Origin: Stegostoma tigrinum
Lineage: Eukaryota
Length of the DNA: 64,000 nucleotides
Assembly (NCBI RefSeq): GCF_030684315.1
Contig: NC_081356.1
Coordinates: 8,072,362-8,136,361 of the forward strand
Direction of reading: 5' to 3'
The translations under genes were made by a program, and so were the position numbers. Below are positions 19,196 to 62,779 of this stretch, piece after piece. Every line of letters starts with the position of its first letter. The stretch's first letter is position 1. The notes under the pieces were generated by a model. That model saw only the letters and a list, made by a program, of their open reading frames with translations. It did not search any database and was not told where the DNA came from.

Positions 19196-19358
19196 ATAAG
19201 ATAATTAAATGTGAGGCTGGATGAACACAGCAGGCCAAGCAGCATCTCAGGAGCACAAAAGCTTTTGTGCTCCTGAGATGCTGCTTGGCCTGCTGTGTTC
19301 ATCCAGCCTCACATTTTATTATCTTGGATTCTCCAGCATCTGCAGTTCCCATTATCAC
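19196..19358. mobile_element. PLE terminal-repeat (family A, young) spacerless palindrome inside Gypsy integrase
   Basis: 64-bp arms 19198-19261 and 19262-19325, one mismatch, no spacer; tail to 19358; 15-bp TSD tgcatcttttgcact at 19181-19195 and 19359-19373. Confidence 0.95.
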
Positions 19359-20193
19359 TGCATCTTTTGCACTGTATGGATTCCGGAGAGTGTTAGTCAC
19401 AGATAATGAGCCAACGTTTACCAGCAGGGAATTTCCTAAATGTGAATAGTATTTGACATTTAAGCATTGTTCCATCATCCAATGATCTAGTGGAAAAAGC
19501 AGTCTAAACTTTGAAGGGAAGCTTAAAGAAACAGCCTGCAGCTTCACTAGGTACCAAACTGACACCAGTTCTGATTTGATTATAGGACCATCCCTCATGC
19601 AACCACAGGATAGCTCCAACAGAGTTACTAATTGGGAGAATACTCTATGCCAAATTAAATGTCATCCTTCTGCCCCTAGGGGAGAAGTTGAACTGGCAAT
19701 AGAAATATGAATGCTGGACAAAAGACTCTGCTAAACAAGAGAGACAGCTTACTTTAGGGACTAAGCTTGGTGTAGGAACCATGAAAATAGTCCTGCATGG
19801 GTAGGAGACATGGTTGGCATGGGGTCAGGTCAAGTGATGTATAAAGTTTGGGTAGGTGCGACTGTCCTGAACATGCACATGGACCATATGAAAGCTGCAA
19901 ACTCACAAATAGTGCCGGAACAAAATGCCTTTCCGAATGTTGCAGAACCTGTGTGTTCTCCTTCTCTGACAAGTGCTGTCAGAATCAGAGTTGGGCATAT
20001 CAGATGTTGCCACCTTGAGTCCTTTGCCATCTGAAGAAGGGAATGAATTTCTCCAAGGTGCTCTGGGTGCAACAGGCATGCTACTGTGTATTACATGCCA
20101 GCTGTTTCAGAAGCAATGTTGGAGGAGCCTGACTCAGTGCCAAGACGGCCCAGGAGAAGCTTAAAAAAAGTCCTCAGGCACAGAGGGGGAGAG

Positions 20194-21382: not shown

Positions 21383-21504
21383 GAGATAACACAGTGTAGA
21401 GCTGGGTGAACACTACAGGCCAAGCAGCATCAGAGAAGCATGTTGATGTTTCGGGTCAGGACCCTTCTTCAGGAAATCCAGCATCCGCAGTTCTTGCTAT
21501 CTCT
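21383..21504. mobile_element. PLE terminal-repeat (family A) partial fold-back
   Basis: Arm ending gggtcaggacccttcttcag followed by the inverted tail tccagcatccgcagttcttgctatctct. Confidence 0.8.
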
Positions 21505-21651
21505 TTGCACAGTGTTGTGGCAATCTGAAAGTCTAGGCCGATTCTTTCCAGCCCCTAAACAATGTCAGTGTTGGTGAGTCAATTGGAAAAATAGGTGAGA
21601 TCAGCAGAAATAATATTCTCAACACTGAGAAAAAGAAGTCCATTTCTTAAA

Positions 21652-21847
21652 CAGATAGTGGGAATTGCCAATGCTGGAGGATCTGAGATAACAAGGTGTA
21701 GACCTGGATGAACGCAGCAGGCCAAGGCAGCACCAAAGGAGCAGGAAAGCTGATGTTTCAGGTCTGGACCCAAAACGTCAGCTTTCCTGCTCCTCTGATG
21801 CTGCTTGGCTTGCTGTGTTCATCCAGCTGTATGCCTTGATATCTACG
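21652..21847. mobile_element. PLE terminal-repeat (family A) fold-back
   Basis: Inverted arms hinged in hammerhead stem II (ggtctggacc, ~21765); TSD tttcttaaa at 21643-21651 and 21848-21856. Confidence 0.9.
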
Positions 21848-22252
21848 TTTCTTAAAGCAATTTTTCGACTGTGAGACAATAAACTCAACGGTGAGTGGCA
21901 AGAAGCCTATTTTTACCCTTTTGCATGCAATATCATGCAATTTTACCTAGCATAACCTTGTCAGTTTGCAGCTTTGTCTTTTCCCATTTGTCAGAGAGAA
22001 ATTAGACAGTGACAATTGCTGACATGAAAGTCAGAGACAGGATCTGACATCTCCAGCTTTCGGTCTGCTCCTCCCAGCCTCCTTTGCTATACAAGTGTCA
22101 ATCATGCACAAGCGTCATTGGCAAAAGTGATCACAGAAAAATATATCCTAATTTTAAAAAGCTACCAATCAAGTGAAGACTTTGTATCTTTGCCAATAAA
22201 ATAAACCATTTTATGAGATTCTGGGCTCTGTAGAAAACCTTATTATACACAA

Positions 22253-22458
22253 GGAGATAGCAAGAAGCACAGCTATAGGAGTCAGAGTCCGGACAGTGTG
22301 GAGCTGGAGGAATACAACGGTTCAGGCAGAATCAGAAGAGCAGGAAGGTCGACATTTCGGGTTTACACTCTTCCTCAAGACTCAGGAAACGCAAAACATT
22401 GACTTTATTCCTCCTCTGATGCTGCCTGACCTGTTCCTCCAGCTCCACACTGCATTGA
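22253..22458. mobile_element. Old PLE terminal-repeat (family A-like) fold-back
   Basis: Diverged inverted arms; TSD cttattataca at 22239-22249 and 22459-22469. Confidence 0.8.
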
Positions 22459-25293: not shown

Positions 25294-25684
25294 TGTTAAA
25301 GTAATGTTCAGGCAGCTTATTCTTGGAGATTTATTCTATTCTTTCAGGCCAGCATATACTTTACAAGTGTAGTTGCTGCCATTGTATAGATAAAAAATTG
25401 AAAGGTCATATTAGGATATCCTCTCATTCAAAGATCTATTTACTTTGTGGAGTGGCTCACTATTGAGGATACAGTGGCTATAAAGTAATGTAGGGTCTGA
25501 GATATCAAACGGAAAAGCTAATTTTTATTTGTTCTTCCACTGACAGTTATGGAAGTGTGGGTGAAACTGAGGAAAATCATATTCATCAGGGAAATAAGAC
25601 AGGGTAAATTGTGGGAGTCCAGTTCTGACAACGTTCTAATGGACTTCATCCTAGAGTATGAAAAGAAGAGGGTATAGCTAATGT

Positions 25685-25902
25685 CAGAGATAATGGGAAC
25701 TGCAGATGCTGGAGAATTCCAAGATAATAAAATGTGAGGCTGGATGAACACAGCAGGCCAAGCAGCATCTCAGGAGCACAAAAGCTGACGTTTCGGGCCT
25801 AGACCCTTCATCAGAGAGGTCTAGGCCTGAAACGTCAGCTTTTGTGCTCCTGAGATGCTGCTTGGCCTGCTGTGTTCATCCAGCCTCACATTTTATTATC
25901 TT
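25685..25902. mobile_element. PLE terminal-repeat (family A, young) fold-back
   Basis: Long arm 25685-25818 and short inverted arm ~25818-25904; 14-bp TSD ggtatagctaatgt at 25671-25684 and 25903-25916. Confidence 0.95.
25787..25814 (-). ncRNA. Minimal type I hammerhead ribozyme core (predicted)
   Basis: Minus strand reads CUGAUGA-A-GGG UCUAGG CCC-GAAA-CG-UC^AGCU. Helix III is reduced to palindromic ACGU, so it could only form in a dimer; helix I is weak. Activity is not demonstrated. Confidence 0.75.
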
Positions 25903-25939
25903 GGTATAGCTAATGTATTGGTTTTAAATTTCAAAACTT

Positions 25940-28320: not shown

Positions 28321-29784
28321 CTGATCTAGCACAACTAACTTCCAATATTTTTCAATGTCATCAATGTCAAACCATTGTAAAGTGTGAATAAATTGAAAAG
28401 TAAAGATATCTTCCACAGATTTCCTGTGCCATGTATTTTCATTTGTTTTTGACATAGATTACATTTGTAGGCAAGCTGGGCTACATAGAGGGCCTCCTCA
28501 GCTATCTTGAAATTCCGTTTGAGATGACTTTGTGTGCTGGCCTTTCACTATTTTACTGTAATATCAATCATTTGTCTCCTACACAGCAAAGGAAATTAAC
28601 TGGGCTTTCATCTCATTGCCCCCCTGGGGAGAATTGCTACAGTGCAATGCCCGTTATATTTTTCTGCTTCTCCCAGTCACTATGCAATAGTAATTATTTG
28701 TGTCAACTTTTGAAAAAAAATACTTTGGCACAATACAGTGCTGCATAAATACATGTATTACTTTTGCATTTTGCTACGAGACTGTGTTGCTCCATGGTAG
28801 CACTGAGTTATAAGGGGATGGCTCCAGGGCTAACTCCAGACATTTTATTGGCTGAAAAGTGCTTTGGGCCAGAATGATATTATGAAAAGAAAATGTTTTA
28901 TTAATACATTTTTTCTTTCAATACAAGTTTGCAATGATTGATTGAGAAAGTTGACCTTCTGTACATGATTCTGTGCAATTATCATTTAATCCTCTAACAT
29001 GCCATCAGAGCAGTAACATGCTAATTTTGTTGGAACAGATTTAAGTATCACCAGGCAGATTGTTAACACTTCCCACTGGCCTGTCTGAAAGTGGGATGAT
29101 GGAGTGGGGGAATACTGTGAAGTTGTCAAAGTGGGCTTTACACAGTTCCCCACTCTCCCTCAATTTTGAGGCTACCTGGAAAATTCCAGGGGTCTCATGA
29201 TAAACTTTGATGGTGACCCTGGATTTTAGGTGGGAAATTTGAGATGGGCCAAAGCCCTCCACGATTACCTTTACATTTTGGCACCCCCTTTCTGAAGGTC
29301 TGCCCCCATCGGTGATTTCTGCAGAATTGGCTTCTCTACCCTTCTCTCCCCATCAGCCCTCTTTCCTGGGCTCGTCTCCTCTCCCCACAATCAGAAGCCC
29401 ACTTCTCATCACAGTTTATCTGATCCTGAACTCTGCGACTTTGAGCCTGGGGGGGGTGGCTGTTTGTATTTCCAGCCCAGCCATTGGTGCTGTTAGCATT
29501 GCTGAAACTCGAGATTGGCCAGCAGCTACTTCAGCTGGATTTTCGCTCAAGTAAAGGGTATCAAAACCATCTCCAGTTATTGAAGCTCCTGTCAATACTA
29601 AATGGGTGCAACTCTGCCAATATCACGACCGAGTCTTGGCGAGGGGAAACCCCAAATTCTAAAATTCCTGCCTATTGTTGTTCACGTGTGAGAAAACACC
29701 TTGTGAAATTTAGAATTGTGACTTTGGAAAAGTAATTTAGTGATAATGTTAGTGGATTAGTAATCCAGATGGTACATCGGGAGG

Positions 29785-30103
29785 TTAAAATAGTATCAGA
29801 GATAATGGGAACTGCAGATGCCGGAGAATTCCAAGACAACAAAATGTGAGGCTGGATGAACACAGCAGGCCAAGCAGCACCCCAGGAGCACAAAAGCTGA
29901 CGTCTCGGGCCCAGACCCTTCATCAGATGAAGGGTCTGGGCCCAAGACGTCAGCTTTTGTGCTAAAGTCTGATGAAGGGTCTGGGCCCGAGATGTCAGCT
30001 TTTGTGCACTCTGATGAAGGGTCTGGGCCCGAGACGTCAGCTTTTGTGCTCCTGGGGTGCTGCTTGGCCTGCTGTGTTCATCCAGCCTCACATTTTGTTG
30101 TCT
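29785..30103. mobile_element. PLE terminal-repeat (family A, young) fold-back with triplicated hammerhead core and A-to-G changes
   Basis: Long arm 29796-29924, hinge 29925, three tandem core units 29926-30049, short arm to ~30106; TSD tggtacatcgggagg at 29770-29784 and 30104-30118. Confidence 0.95.
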
Positions 30104-30379
30104 TGGTACATCGGGAGGCATGCATTCAAATCTCATGAGGATAGCTGGGGAGTTTTAAATTCAATTCAATAGTAAATCTGGAAGGAAATACAACAACTTT
30201 ACCTGGTATTGCTTATATGTGAGTCCAGACCCACACTCCTATAATGAACTCTTAACTATCCTCTTAAGTGGTTTAGCAGGTTACCAGGTTGGAACAAATC
30301 ACTGCAAAAAAGTTGAATAAGAATAAAACCAAACTCAACACCCAGAATTAACCTATTATCAGAATATGACATAGAAACA

Positions 30380-30479
30380 AGCTTTTGTGCTCCTAAGGTG
30401 CTGCTTGTCCTGCTGTGTTCATCCAGCCCCACACTTCATTATCTCGGATTCTCCAGCATCTGCAGTTCCCATTATCACT
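30380..30479 (+). mobile_element. PLE terminal-repeat (family A) single copy starting at the predicted ribozyme cleavage site
   Basis: Begins agcttttgtgctcc, i.e. directly after GUC^, and ends cccattatcact. Confidence 0.85.
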
Positions 30480-30825
30480 GCTGTATGCATGCCTGGGAGA
30501 GTCTCAAAGGATTAATACTTGACTGAAAACAACAAGCATCACCGACTGAAATGATACTGCGAAGACTTGGTGAGACTGAAAAGAAATAGCACATGGAAGA
30601 TAGACCCATGGCTAGGTCATCCCATCAATCTTGTAGTGGTACAGTTCTGCTTTTTATAGCACATAAAAAAGCTACACTGTTAAAAAAAGACCTCAGAAAT
30701 TCAATGAGTGGTTCAGGGGCATCACACTTATTGTTGAATGTATGCTTCGGTGAGTTACTGTCAACTTGTAGAAATGGCAAAAGTAGGCATTGTTTCTGTA
30801 TTCATCAAAACAGCAGAGTGCTGTT

Positions 30826-31181
30826 TAGAGCTGGAGGAACACAACAGGCCAGACAGAATCAGAGGAGCTGGAAAATTGATGTTTTGGGTCGGGACCCTTC
30901 TTCAGAAAATGGTTCTGTCTTCTGTGAGATGCTTCCTTTCAGTCTCACCAAGGCCTCGTGGTGTCATTACAGTAAGTGATGCTAATTGTTCTCAATCAAA
31001 TATTAATCCTTTGAGACACTTCCAGACTTGTATACAACAGTGCTTCTTTGACATTTTCTGAAGAAGGGTCCCGGCCCGAAATGTCAACTTTCCTGCTCCT
31101 CTGATGCTCCCTGGCCCACTGTGCTCCTCCAGCTCCACACTGTGTTATCTCTGACTCCAGAATCTGCAGTTCCTGCTATCT
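30826..31181. mobile_element. PLE terminal-repeat (family A) fold-back with 140-bp unrelated spacer
   Basis: Arms 30826-30911 and 31052-31181; core ctgaagaagggtcccggcccgaaatgtc at 31058-31085; imperfect TSD cagagtgctgttt (30814-30826) / cagagtactgctt (31182-31194). Confidence 0.9.
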
Positions 31182-32071
31182 CAGAGTACTGCTTGGGCAA
31201 GATTACTGAAGTCTAATGGTATTATATGAATTGTGTTAATCTTATACAAATCATGGGAGAAATCCACCTACGTCCACACTTGATGATAGTTCAGTTAAAC
31301 CATCCAAAAGCAGAGTTTTCACAAAACTCAACACAAGTAGTCATTCTGGAGAGTGCTATTGGCTGACCAGTCAACAATTACTTACCACATTTATAATCAC
31401 TTTGGACGATTTTGACTTAACAGTATTTTTTTGGGATTTGCACCTGCCCCAGAGATTTTCTAATGAGTTATGCCAAACCATTTGCAAGGTCTTTGCTAAG
31501 TCATATGCCATGCTCATGACATACTAATCTATTGGGCAATGTTTGAACAGCCGGCAGATTCATTCATTCATGAGTGGAGAACCCCACACATCACATCAGC
31601 GTGAATTCTCCAGAGAATCTATCTTTTTTGGCACACCGTGTTAACAGTGAAGGAATAACAGCTGGTCCTCAGAAGACTAATCTCATTACTGTATCATCCA
31701 CTTCAAGATTAGACCAGAAGCTTCAAAGGCTCTTTAGTATGGTGAATCTTTAACAAGATTTTTGCCTAACCAGTCAACTATTGCTGAAACTCCTTGAAGA
31801 CACAAAAATGGGATTGAAACCCTCATGAAGAAAATGTTTTTCGGAATGCTGAAGAAATGTTGATGTCCACATATGTCTTAGCACATTGTAATCCATCATT
31901 TCCAAGTCTTATAAAGTTGTTTCTATTGACCAGATACATAAATGCCCCAACCACATAAATACTTTGGCCTCAATGCAAGTCAGATACTGGGAATACTTTA
32001 ATGAGTAACTCATTTCCTGACAGCACAAAACCTGTTCACCACCTACAAAGACCAAGTCTGGAGTGTAATAA

Positions 32072-36032: not shown

Positions 36033-36216
36033 TTTAGAAATAGTGAGAACGGCTGATGCTGGAGAATCTGACACAGCAAGGTGTGGAGCTGGATGAACAC
36101 AACAGGCCAAGCTGCATCAGAGGAGCAGGAAAGCTGACGTTTCGGGTCTGGACCCTTCTTCACAAGTTCCTCTGATGCTGCTTAGCCTGCTGTGTTCATC
36201 CAGCTCTACACCTTGT
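36033..36216. mobile_element. PLE terminal-repeat (family A) fold-back
   Basis: Long arm to ~36162 and short inverted arm; 17-bp TSD tatcccagtcacataga at 36016-36032 and 36217-36233. Confidence 0.9.
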
Positions 36217-37442
36217 TATCCCAGTCACATAGAATCTTGTTACAGTAATGAACCAGGAGTTTATTTTTGGAAGGTTTTGAGAAGGCAGCTGGATAACTGC
36301 TGCAGTGAGACAAATAGCTGAGATTAGCACATCTGTGAGGTCTTTTAGGAAAAATTGGAGGGTCACTTGCGAGATTCGTAGAACGATAGTACATTGGAGA
36401 AAGCTGGAATGCTGAGAAGAATTCAAGTAAATTCCAGAGCCATGTAGCCTACTTTTTCAATGGTCCCTAAAGAAATGAATGAATCTTTAAAATTCTTAGA
36501 TTATGTAATGAAACTGGGGGAGGAGGGAAAGTAAAAAAAGTTTAGTCAGTTCACAGCCTAAGTAGTTATAAGCTAAACTGTCAAGTTAAGAGTTTATTCT
36601 GCTTAAATGTTTTTTTTGTCAAAATTATTTTTATCTACAAAGGTCCAATGGCATAGATCTATCAATTAATCAGAAGATCGTGATGTATTCGAGCCAAGGT
36701 AGGTCATTTGGCCCGTCGGGTCTGCCCCACCATTTGATCATGGCTGATATGTTTTTCAACCTCATTGTCCTGCCTTTTCCCTGTATCCCTCGATCACCAT
36801 ATTAAACAAGAACCTATCCATCGCTGTCTTAAATACTCTGTATCCCTGGGTCCCTGCAGTTTTCTGCAGCAATGAGTTCCGCAGATTAATTACCCTTTGG
36901 CTGAAGAAATTCCTGTTCATCTCAATTCTAAAGGGCCGTTCCTTCACTCTGAAGCTGTGCCCTTGGCTCCTAGTCTGCCCACCTAGTAGAAGTGCCTTCT
37001 CCATGTTCACTGCCTCAAAGCGTCTCAGTATTCTGTAATCTTCAATGAGATCCCCCTCATCCTTCTAAAGTCCATCAAGTACAGAGCCAGATTCCTCAAC
37101 TGCTCCTCATATGACAAGCCCTTCATTCCCAGGATCATTCCTATAAACTTCCTCTGGATATTCTCCAATGCCAGTACATCCTTCCTTAGATACAGGGCCC
37201 AAACTGCTCATAATATTCCAAATGCAGCCTGACCAGAGCATTGTACACTCTCAGTGGTACATTCCTGCTCTTGTATTCTAGCCCTTTTGAAATGAAAGCT
37301 GACAATGCATTTGCATTTCTAACTGTCAACTGACCCTACATGTTAATCTTAAGAGAATCCTGAACTAGGACTCCCAAGTACTTTTGCTCTGCAGATTTCC
37401 GAGACCTTTCACCCGTGGAAAATATTCTATTCTTTCTACCAA

Positions 37443-38781
37443 TTCAACAACCGTTGCATCTCCCTGGCGCAATGCTCATCCCTGGCACATTAAATAACAA
37501 GGATATCGCCGTCAGTTCCCCACATTTTAATGTTAGCTCTGCCTTCAACAGTATAGTTCCAACCTCCCCACACTCCAAACTCCGAAACGTAGGAGTCTGC
37601 TCTCCTGTCTGAACTGGATCCTCAATTTCTTGACCCACAGACCACAATCAATAAGGATAGGCGATCACACTCCTCCACGTTAATTCTCAATGCTGGTACC
37701 CCAGAAAGCTGGATACTCAGCCCCTTACTATACACCTTATACACTCATGACTGTGTGGCTAAATTCAGCTCTAACTCTGTTTACAAATTTGCTGATGACA
37801 CCACCTTAGTGAGTCGGATCTTAAACAATGTTGAGAGAGTGCAGGAAAGTTAGAGAGCTTAATGGTATGGTGTTAAGACAGCAATCTCTTCCTGAATGCC
37901 AGCAAAACGGACCAACTGCTCATCAACTTCAGGAAGCAGAGTGGCGGACACATCCCTGTTCAGTAAGAATCAGCAACAATCTGTCTTGGTCCATCCACAT
38001 TGTTGCTATGGTCAAGGAAGTACACCAACACCTCTAATCCCTCAGAAGGCTAAGGAAATCTGACATCTCCACAACGAATCTTACCAATTTGCATAGGAGC
38101 ACCACTGAAAACATCCTATCTGGATGCATCATCACAGCTTGGTATGACAACTGCTCTGCCCAAGACCACAAGTAATTACAGAGCTCAGTCCATCGTGCAA
38201 ACCGACCTTCTATCTATTGATAACAAGGTATGGAGCTGGAGGAACACAGCAGGCTAAGCAGCATCGTCGGAGCAGAAGGAGAAGGGTCTAGCCCCGAAGC
38301 GACAGGCTTCCTGCTCCTATGATGCTGCTTGGCCTGCTGTGTTCATCCAGCTCTATACCTTGTTGTCTCAGATTCTCCAGCATCTGCAGTTCCTACATTC
38401 TCCCTTCCGTCCATTGACTCTGTATATATTTCCCGCTGCTTTGAAAAAGCAGCCAACACAATCAGACATCTCCCACTCCAGTTATATTCTCTTCCACCCA
38501 CTTTTGTCAGACAGAAGATACAAATGTATGAAACACGTACCAACAGATTGAAGAACAGCTTCTTCCCCACTGTTATCAGGCTTTTGAATGGACCCCTCAT
38601 TTATCAAAGCTGATCATTCTTTGTACCTTCTCTGTGGGTGTAACACTATATCCTGCATTCTGTTTTATTACCCTGATGTACTTATGTAAGGCATGACTTA
38701 TCTTGATAGCGAGTAAAACAACACTTTTTTCTCTATCTCAACATATGTGACAATAATCAAATCAAGTTAAATTAAATCAAA
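37443..38781 (+). mobile_element. Rex1/Babar-type LINE, 5'-truncated
   Basis: SSAFNSIVP, WILNFLTHRPQS, YTHDCVAKFSSNSVYKFADDTTLV, RTNRLKNSFFPTVIRLLN; (aaatc)n-like tail 38754-38781. Confidence 0.85.
38219..38402. mobile_element. PLE terminal-repeat (family A) fold-back inside Rex1
   Basis: Inverted arms; decayed TSD ccttctatctattga (38206-38220) / ccttccgtccattga (38403-38417). Confidence 0.85.
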
Positions 38782-46771: not shown

Positions 46772-46864
46772 TAATAAAATGTGAGGCTGGATGAACACAG
46801 CAGGCCAAGCAGCATCTCAGGAGCACAAAAGCTGACGTTTCGGGCCTAGACCCTTCATCAGAGG
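46772..46864 (-). mobile_element. PLE terminal-repeat (family A, young) single tailless copy with intact hammerhead core (46834-46861)
   Basis: Identical to the matching part of the 25685-25818 arm; TSD attacatgta at 46764-46773 and 46865-46874. Confidence 0.95.
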
Positions 46865-54622: not shown

Positions 54623-54942
54623 AGAGATAACGGGAACTGCAGATGCTGGAGAAACCGAGATAACAAAGTGTAGAGCTGGATGAACACAGCAGGTCAAGCA
54701 GCATCCTAGGAGCACAAAAGCTGACATTCCCGGGCCTAACCCCTTAATCGGAAAAGTAGGGTCGGGGGAGAGGGTTCTGAAATAAATAGGGAGAGAGGGA
54801 GAGGTGAATCAAAGATGGATAGAGGAGAAGATAGGTGGAGAGGAGACAGACAAGTTAAAGAGGCGGGGATGGAGCCTGTAGAGGTGAGTGTAGGTGGGGA
54901 GGTAGGGAAGGATAGGTCAGCCCAGGGAGGACGGACAGGTCA
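54623..54942 (-). mobile_element. PLE family A terminal repeat with ~190 bp purine-rich upstream UTR
   Basis: Tail and body like the 27245 copy; decayed hammerhead; no TSD seen; part of the host CR1 appears to be missing at this site. Confidence 0.85.
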
Positions 54943-62638: not shown

Positions 62639-62779
62639 TAACAAGGTGTACAGCTGGATGAACACAGCATGCCAGGCAGCATCAGAGGAGCACGAAAGCT
62701 GACGTTTCGGGTCGGGACCCTTCTTCAGAAATACAACTTGTTATCTCAGACTCCAGCATCAGCAGTTCTTACTATCTCT
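62639..62779. mobile_element. PLE terminal-repeat (family A) partial fold-back with intact hammerhead core (62701-62728, minus)
   Basis: Minus strand CUGAAGA-A-GGGU CCCG ACCC-GAAA-CG-UC; inverted tail; TSD tcatatgggt (62629-62638) / tcatttgggt (62784-62793). Confidence 0.9.

Follow-up and report, generated by a model that had tools for sequence, protein, structure and literature searches.

Strand-pure clusters of A-to-G changes in a Penelope-like retrotransposon family of Stegostoma tigrinum

The insertion and its element family

The window, a stretch of 64,000 nucleotides of Stegostoma tigrinum DNA, holds an insertion at 29785–30106 that is built of two inverted arms (143 and 97 bp) with two partial copies between them, and that is bounded by a 14-bp target-site duplication (Table 1). 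A preliminary description of this DNA had placed its start at 29796; we set it at about 29785, as the same 11-bp extension (29785–29795) is present in two other copies of the family, L095 and L157. The short copy contains no open reading frame. Its left junction is matched without differences by contigs of X1 and X3, two possibly non-independent runs whose contigs are equal in length and reach 29808, short of the first changed base.

Table 1. Features of the insertion and of two reference copies in the window.
Feature	Position	Strand	Remark
Left target-site duplication, 14 bp	29771..29784	+	Identical to 30105–30118
Long arm, Penelope-like element 3′ end (hammerhead-like motif and ‘tail’), all seven A>G	29785..29927	- (sense)	
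Hammerhead-like core CUGAUGA - stem II - GAAAC GUC	29899..29926	-	Motif read from sequence; ViennaRNA predicts stem II
Internal partial sense copy 1	29926..29963	+	A>G at 29938, 29946; CpG-type change at 29944
Internal partial sense copy 2	29968..30007	+	A>G at 29983, 29991; CpG-type change at 29993
Short arm, without tail, mirroring 6/7 changes	30010..30106	+	97/97 positions equal to left arm
Right target-site duplication	30105..30118	+	2-bp overlap with arm end
Unedited fold-back of the same subfamily, natural reference	25684..25905	-	
Unedited single-arm copy	46772..46863	-	Reference-identical over 92 bp

The family was counted by pattern matching of arm stretches across the 3.2-Gb genome, where a 35-base arm pattern has 95,562 matches. 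Many copies are inverted pairs, up to 1.5 kb long, and the arms end in two groups about 35 nt apart (positions 91–102 and 125–139). Longer copies have an open reading frame, on the same strand as the ribozyme motif, with a reverse transcriptase (RT) YIDD motif and a VVY-YIG-type (GIY-YIG-type) motif, both read by eye; a Pfam scan of this frame gave RVT_1 alone, whose E of 5e-5 falls short of the cut-off, with no match to a GIY-YIG family. In PAc, a Poseidon/Penelope element of Anolis, two internal start sites 30–40 nt apart give a ‘tail’, and both target strands are extended at insertion (PMC11167929, in the parts covered). The reading-frame motifs, the arm-end groups and the inverted pairs match this Penelope/Poseidon type, and the insertion at 29785 is, as judged from sequence, the 3′ end of a 5′-truncated Penelope-like retrotransposon. 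The longest copy seen, L157:2000–4260 (minus strand), has an open frame of 768 residues that runs from upstream of the RT into it and contains a short repeat rich in Thr, Pro and Ala. Older relatives, 70–88% identical, lie in the window at 2197–2467, 21384–22377, 30830–31182, 36036–36220, 38219–38405, 54623–54752 and 62653–62779; several are inverted pairs, and many of their cores read CUGAAGA.

The core of a type I hammerhead consists of CUGANGA, stem II, GAAA and a GUH cleavage triplet. Hammerhead motifs are present in unedited copies, with stem II predicted by ViennaRNA, and Rfam gave no hammerhead match in the whole window at the gathering threshold or in 261 bases of L154 by E-value. At 19198–19360 and 30380–30480 of the window, three arms start exactly one base after GUC, the predicted hammerhead cleavage site. 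These arms may be copies of self-cleaved RNA; the start position is also a 4-bp palindrome.

One-type changes at the locus and across the genome

Compared with the reference fold-back (29796–29927 against 25684–25815), the long arm differs at seven sites over 132 bp, each a T>C when read on the plus strand and hence A>G on the sense strand. They lie at 29822, 29837, 29840, 29880, 29882, 29904 and 29912, exactly the sites given in the preliminary description and no others; the identity it had claimed between the copies at 46772 and 25685 likewise held (100% over 92 bp). Six of the changes recur in mirror image, as it had also said, at 30025, 30033, 30055, 30057, 30097 and 30100, because the right arm equals the left throughout. 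It had missed the two internal sense pieces, both of which carry the 29904 and 29912 changes, so that each of these is present four times. The 29822 change, in the tail, is present once and is changed in 0 of 33 other arms; it may be an ordinary mutation.

It is scarcely conceivable that the seven bases are sequencing or assembly errors. Among the contigs listed, none spans them, and same-type mismatch clusters can be artefacts, as the part of PMC2873906 covered describes for G-to-A in trace data. Against this, the opposite strand repeats six of the changes, two of them are found four times over, the target-site duplications and flanks are clean, and both strand classes of change, described below, are found at dozens of independent loci.

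We searched the genome for similar clusters with a 34-base pattern in which all eight T's were replaced by C (sense) or all eight A's by G (antisense), allowing up to three mismatches. At least five of the eight A>G changes were carried by 84 matches in the sense class and by 30 in the antisense class. The control pattern with eight C>T had 0 matches, and the one with seven G>A had 6, each with as many mismatches as were allowed. The strand-specific excess of A>G clusters for which the preliminary description had proposed a check is therefore present; C>T and G>A clusters are absent or marginal in the family, those of the APOBEC type (sense-strand G>A) having 0 matches, and the changes at 29785 are A>G. 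That description had also weighed editing against equally frequent T>C clusters on the sense strand. Such clusters do occur, but they are fewer (30 versus 84), and they strengthen the case for editing because they represent A>G in antisense arms with the neighbour order of ADAR.

Twenty of the 84 sense matches lie on small contigs, and the three examined are amplified copies of two insertions. Allowing for amplification, mirrored arms and shared loci, we estimate about 85 independent edited insertions, roughly 0.1% of matches. Sequence was compared for 66 of the 84 sense rows and all 30 antisense rows; removal of 11 duplicate loci by hand, with a purity filter that some more diverged edited arms failed, gave 58 sense-edited and 37 antisense-edited arms. 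Long copies reach 80/109 A>G with one T>C (L170) and 67/111 A>G with no T>C (L097).

Some edited copies have their own architecture. L112, L189 and L190, and likewise L119 and L188, represent two hyper-edited insertions in amplified small-contig units, with 3–4 kb of flank that is 99.7–99.8% identical. L131:1396–1632 and 1741–2055 are tandem antisense-edited arms with different site sets, adjoined by an unedited sense arm. Both arms of the fold-back at L174:1889–2148 are sense-edited, with site sets that coincide only in part, a hint that the insertion drew on two RNA templates. At L138:1295–2271, an antisense-edited mirrored pair surrounds a palindromic centre, representing an edited arm that was duplicated in a second round.

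Sites 16, 24 and 46 of the 29785 copy, of which only 46 falls outside the search anchor, are those most often changed in the 58 sense-edited arms (50/57, 53/58 and 50/58), and its sites 48 and 91 show moderate editing (11/58 and 14/53). Background change was taken from 30 loci unselected for editing, in which 25 of 3808 A positions were A>G, accounting for 25 of 323 substitutions. The probability of at least six A>G changes in 21 A's, calculated without the polymorphic 29840 site, is 4e-9 per copy and 4e-4 across the 95,562 matches. That polymorphism was one of two caveats raised earlier, and both hold: the G there occurs as a subfamily variant, and two of the seven sites have a 5′ G. On the 29785 copy's own backbone, G at the 29840 site is found at 3 of 93 loci unselected for editing versus 14 of 36 edited arms. 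CpG decay was considered as a source and ruled out, as one of the seven sites is in CpG context and the reference state is found in about 95,000 matches.

We then have to ask whether the seven changes mark a subfamily. A 44-base stretch with four of them has three matches genome-wide, namely both arms of the 29785 locus and one other locus. A check for recurrence of the haplotype, suggested in the preliminary description, thus finds the four-site core at only two loci in about 95,600 family matches, and their full sets differ: the second locus has six sites in common with the first, three further A>G changes and no change at 29822. With one change fixed in the pattern, 13 of the first 100 of 1119 matches carried further T>C and 6 carried at least three; with nothing fixed, any T>C was seen in 1 of the 100 matches listed (p = 0.001).

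It is highly improbable that the 29785 copy simply belongs to a small sub-lineage rich in G, or that it accumulated seven ordinary mutations. The six sites common to the second locus would suit a sub-lineage, as would the known G variant at the 29840 site (26 of 128 arms) and one saturated site set common to 10 of the 58 sense-edited arms. The second locus, however, has its three extra changes and lacks 29822, and the shared saturated set is the outcome that full editing at the same sites would give. Site sets are otherwise nearly all distinct, with 45 in the 58 sense-edited arms and 37 in the 37 antisense-edited arms, and no other substitution type accompanies the changes; what the family holds is pure A>G clusters, not the common subfamily with mixed substitutions that the preliminary description had named as the contrary outcome. 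The chance expectation of 4e-4 genome-wide also speaks against accumulated mutations. The 29785 copy is a lightly edited, mirrored member of a genome-wide class that likely reflects editing by ADAR.

Neighbour preference and duplex limits

The 5′-neighbour order of ADAR1 is given as U=A>C>G in the part of PMC3113232 covered. Outside the search anchor, the antisense class changed 92/101 A's after U, 208/268 after A, 167/264 after C and 138/460 after G (91, 78, 63 and 30%). The corresponding counts for the sense class are 56/61 after A, 77/93 after U, 82/114 after G and 168/281 after C, with the class near saturation and one site giving 50 of the 82 changed 5′-G sites; upstream only, they are 20/32 for G and 150/194 for C. 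The neighbour preference that the preliminary description had proposed as a check is therefore followed by the antisense class, in the order U>A>C>G, while the sense class, to which the 29785 copy belongs, avoids 5′ G weakly.

Of 14 sense/antisense pairs listed, two were not partners and were dropped, leaving 12 adjacent fold-backs with both arms edited. In these, 187/376 and 111/222 paired A's were changed, compared with 4/81 and 0/32 unpaired ones (pooled, 298/598 and 4/113), a comparison in which ‘unpaired’ and ‘tail’ are confounded because every edited arm has few changes in its tail. In the antisense tail, 2 of 59 A's were changed where 32.6 were expected from context. Antisense sites adjoining the loop were changed in 0 of 40 cases, and in 40 of 54 when internal. 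ADAR disfavours A's near the 3′ end of a strand. A>G in both arms on one genomic strand was dropped as a lone test, since any sense/antisense pair gives this picture when inverted; what carries information is that two rare states occur together, and the duplex boundary.

One fold-back, L182, has a host-derived loop of 143 nt with 10 differences from its source, of which 2 are A>G; the arms on either side of it are edited at 13/28 and 9/15 sites. The loop (L182:1839–1981, with a duplicate in L183) is unique host DNA between element arms and originates from G000:C9:81945102–81945244, 93% identical, which suggests template switching onto host sequence. A search for the source fold-back found the loop's origin on C9, with the element arms absent there.

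These limits bear on whether something other than ADAR made the A>G runs, be it another adenosine deaminase or misincorporation by the element's polymerase under skewed dNTP pools. Sense runs do approach saturation, with many 5′-G sites included, and the genome has several A_deamin genes (25 matches to PF02137 on 7 contigs). Polymerase error, however, would not stop at duplex ends or spare the L182 loop, and it gives no reason for the U>A>C>G order. We regard this explanation as very unlikely.

Another route would place the editing on DNA: while target-primed reverse transcription is under way, ADAR would deaminate new cDNA that is still paired with RNA. The DNA strand of RNA:DNA hybrids is a substrate for ADARs, with unchanged sequence preferences (PMC5389660, in the part covered), and the route would account for an asymmetry among the antisense-edited arms: of their partners, 14 are unedited or nearly so and 16 are edited, with 7 arms having no partner. 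Hairpin RNA explains the unedited partners only if one strand alone was edited, and the part of PMC6264153 covered held nothing usable on strand-exclusive editing. Arms with unedited partners fit editing of one strand, a switch onto edited antisense RNA, or cDNA deamination in the hybrid. As a general explanation, cDNA deamination predicts A>G in the antisense (cDNA) orientation only, yet the 29785 copy and the larger class (84) are sense-edited; strand excludes it for the 29785 locus, and it fails on opposite-sense edited arms within one fold-back and on the spared tail. In addition, 5 of 37 antisense-edited arms end at non-priming positions (40–74), against 3 of 122 comparison arms (p = 0.017); such ends are expected for the far end of a continuous cDNA and therefore favour an RNA template. 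We give cDNA deamination a very low probability.

Among the RNA data sets listed, none carries the insertion flank. Contigs of X17 and X18, which come from other samples, have no unique flank and may be RNA (their type is unrecorded), have G shares of 23 and 13% at site 24 and 16 and 30% at site 46, against 2% and 7% in the DNA-like X1 and X3. Excess G in X17/X18, measured on contigs only, was seen at 2 of 5 sense and 3 of 6 antisense sites compared, the other three of each showing none; it is a weak hint of editing in RNA.

Proposed route and relation to known systems

We consider it very probable that the A>G runs come from ADAR-edited, double-stranded element RNA that was retrotransposed into germline DNA. 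Behind this stand insertion as inverted pairs, strand-pure A>G runs, and the stopping of these runs where pairing stops in fold-backs. The A_deamin matches in the genome also speak for it. The preliminary description had proposed that edited RNA was captured in the genome, and the rare haplotype, the pure clusters and the absent or marginal C>T and G>A clusters support it. Copies inserted as inverted pairs would be transcribed into long RNA duplexes, in which ADAR would deaminate A to inosine; the element's RT would then prime on a sense 3′ end and read inosine as G, and the product would integrate in the germline. At the 29785 locus, one lightly edited sense RNA likely supplied every one of the four pieces, either by priming anew or by copying of the first cDNA as a fold-back, and this would account for the mirrored changes. 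Three kinds of product would be expected: single edited arms (31 of the 58 sense arms), hairpins inserted whole whose two arms have distinct edited sites (16 of the 37 antisense arms), and mirrored pairs in which one edited RNA gave both arms (the 29785 locus, L178, L181, L184, L192 and L193).

The changes reach the ribozyme motif. As the preliminary description had stated, GAAA becomes GAGA, with the 29904 change altering its second A, which we take to be required for cleavage; the 29912 change sits in loop II. Its suggestion that the ribozyme was disabled is plausible for the 29785 copy, and no defence function is shown by it. Most sense-edited arms have far more ribozyme-core A's changed than this copy and still inserted. 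Disabling of the ribozyme is likely a by-product, because RNAs with most of their core A's changed still inserted, as hammerhead mutants of PAc do normally in vitro (PMC11167929, in the parts covered).

Long sense-edited copies also have a spared zone: in CA context, 137 of 186 A's were changed upstream and 4 of 51 at positions 49–87, which makes sense positions 49–87 a candidate RT-recognition region. We tentatively extend the reading as follows. Penelope fold-backs may feed a germline cycle in which each inverted pair provides ADAR with a substrate of its own, and the resulting hyper-edited hairpin RNA is mobilised again. The edited copies would then amount to an in vivo mutational scan, in which the ribozyme core tolerates near-total A>G and the unedited positions 49–87 mark an RNA element required by the RT. 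Editing of the antisense arm may free positions 49–87 from the duplex, with ADAR helping re-mobilisation.

Editing of A to I counts as non-heritable, and in integrated retroelements the known deaminase scars are APOBEC G>A. The edited loci would link RNA editing directly to germline DNA, a route taken by about 85 independent insertions within a single family. Such loci would keep a record through time of ADAR activity in germ cells or the early embryo. They would also indicate that fold-back copies, once transcribed, move again, and would delimit in vivo the parts of Penelope RNA needed for insertion. The screen, for A>G clusters against relatives on both strands, is simple and applicable to other genomes rich in Penelope-like elements. 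Full-text searches, a scope outside which lie most subscription journals and supplements, so that an earlier report is possible, brought up no account of retrotransposon copies in host DNA that bear ADAR editing. In the parts of each source covered, no editing was seen in ectopic LINE-1 RNA, and restriction of LINE-1 had no need of the deaminase domain (PMC5224506), and G alleles at edited sites were attributed to selection (PMC7186786). Of two retrozyme papers, again as far as covered, one mentions editing once and speculatively (PMC7229834) and the other makes no mention of it (10.64898/2026.07.22.740005).

The Stegostoma family resembles PAc of Anolis in its frame with RT and GIY-YIG-type motifs, its hammerhead-like motif (PAc has a hammerhead in the pLTR) and its two starts giving a tail, and differs in that the parts of PMC11167929 covered report no RNA editing or hypermutated copies. 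Deaminase clusters of one substitution type in integrated copies are shared with APOBEC-edited LTR retrotransposons of vertebrates; those, as described in the parts covered of PMC4866542 and PMC2873906, are G>A, arise on single-stranded cDNA and affect one strand only, whereas the changes in the Penelope-like copies are A>G, occur on either strand, are limited by the duplex and belong to an element of non-LTR type. The filter of the APOBEC survey of LTR elements kept G>A and not A>G (PMC4866542, in the part covered). Hyper-editing of inverted repeats, as in Alu pairs and palindromic Xenopus transcripts (the latter in PMC2873906, part covered), likewise involves duplex RNA, dense A>G and depletion of 5′ G, but its edits are reported in RNA only. 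The avian retroviruses (Rous-associated virus as well as avian leukosis virus) also show ADAR hyper-editing of an element copied by reverse transcription, with A>G runs that include an inverted-repeat region where about 50% of the A's are changed (PMC12925331, in the part covered). There the runs are described from a few infectious isolates, whereas the Stegostoma family is an endogenous Penelope-like element with dozens of edited genomic copies.
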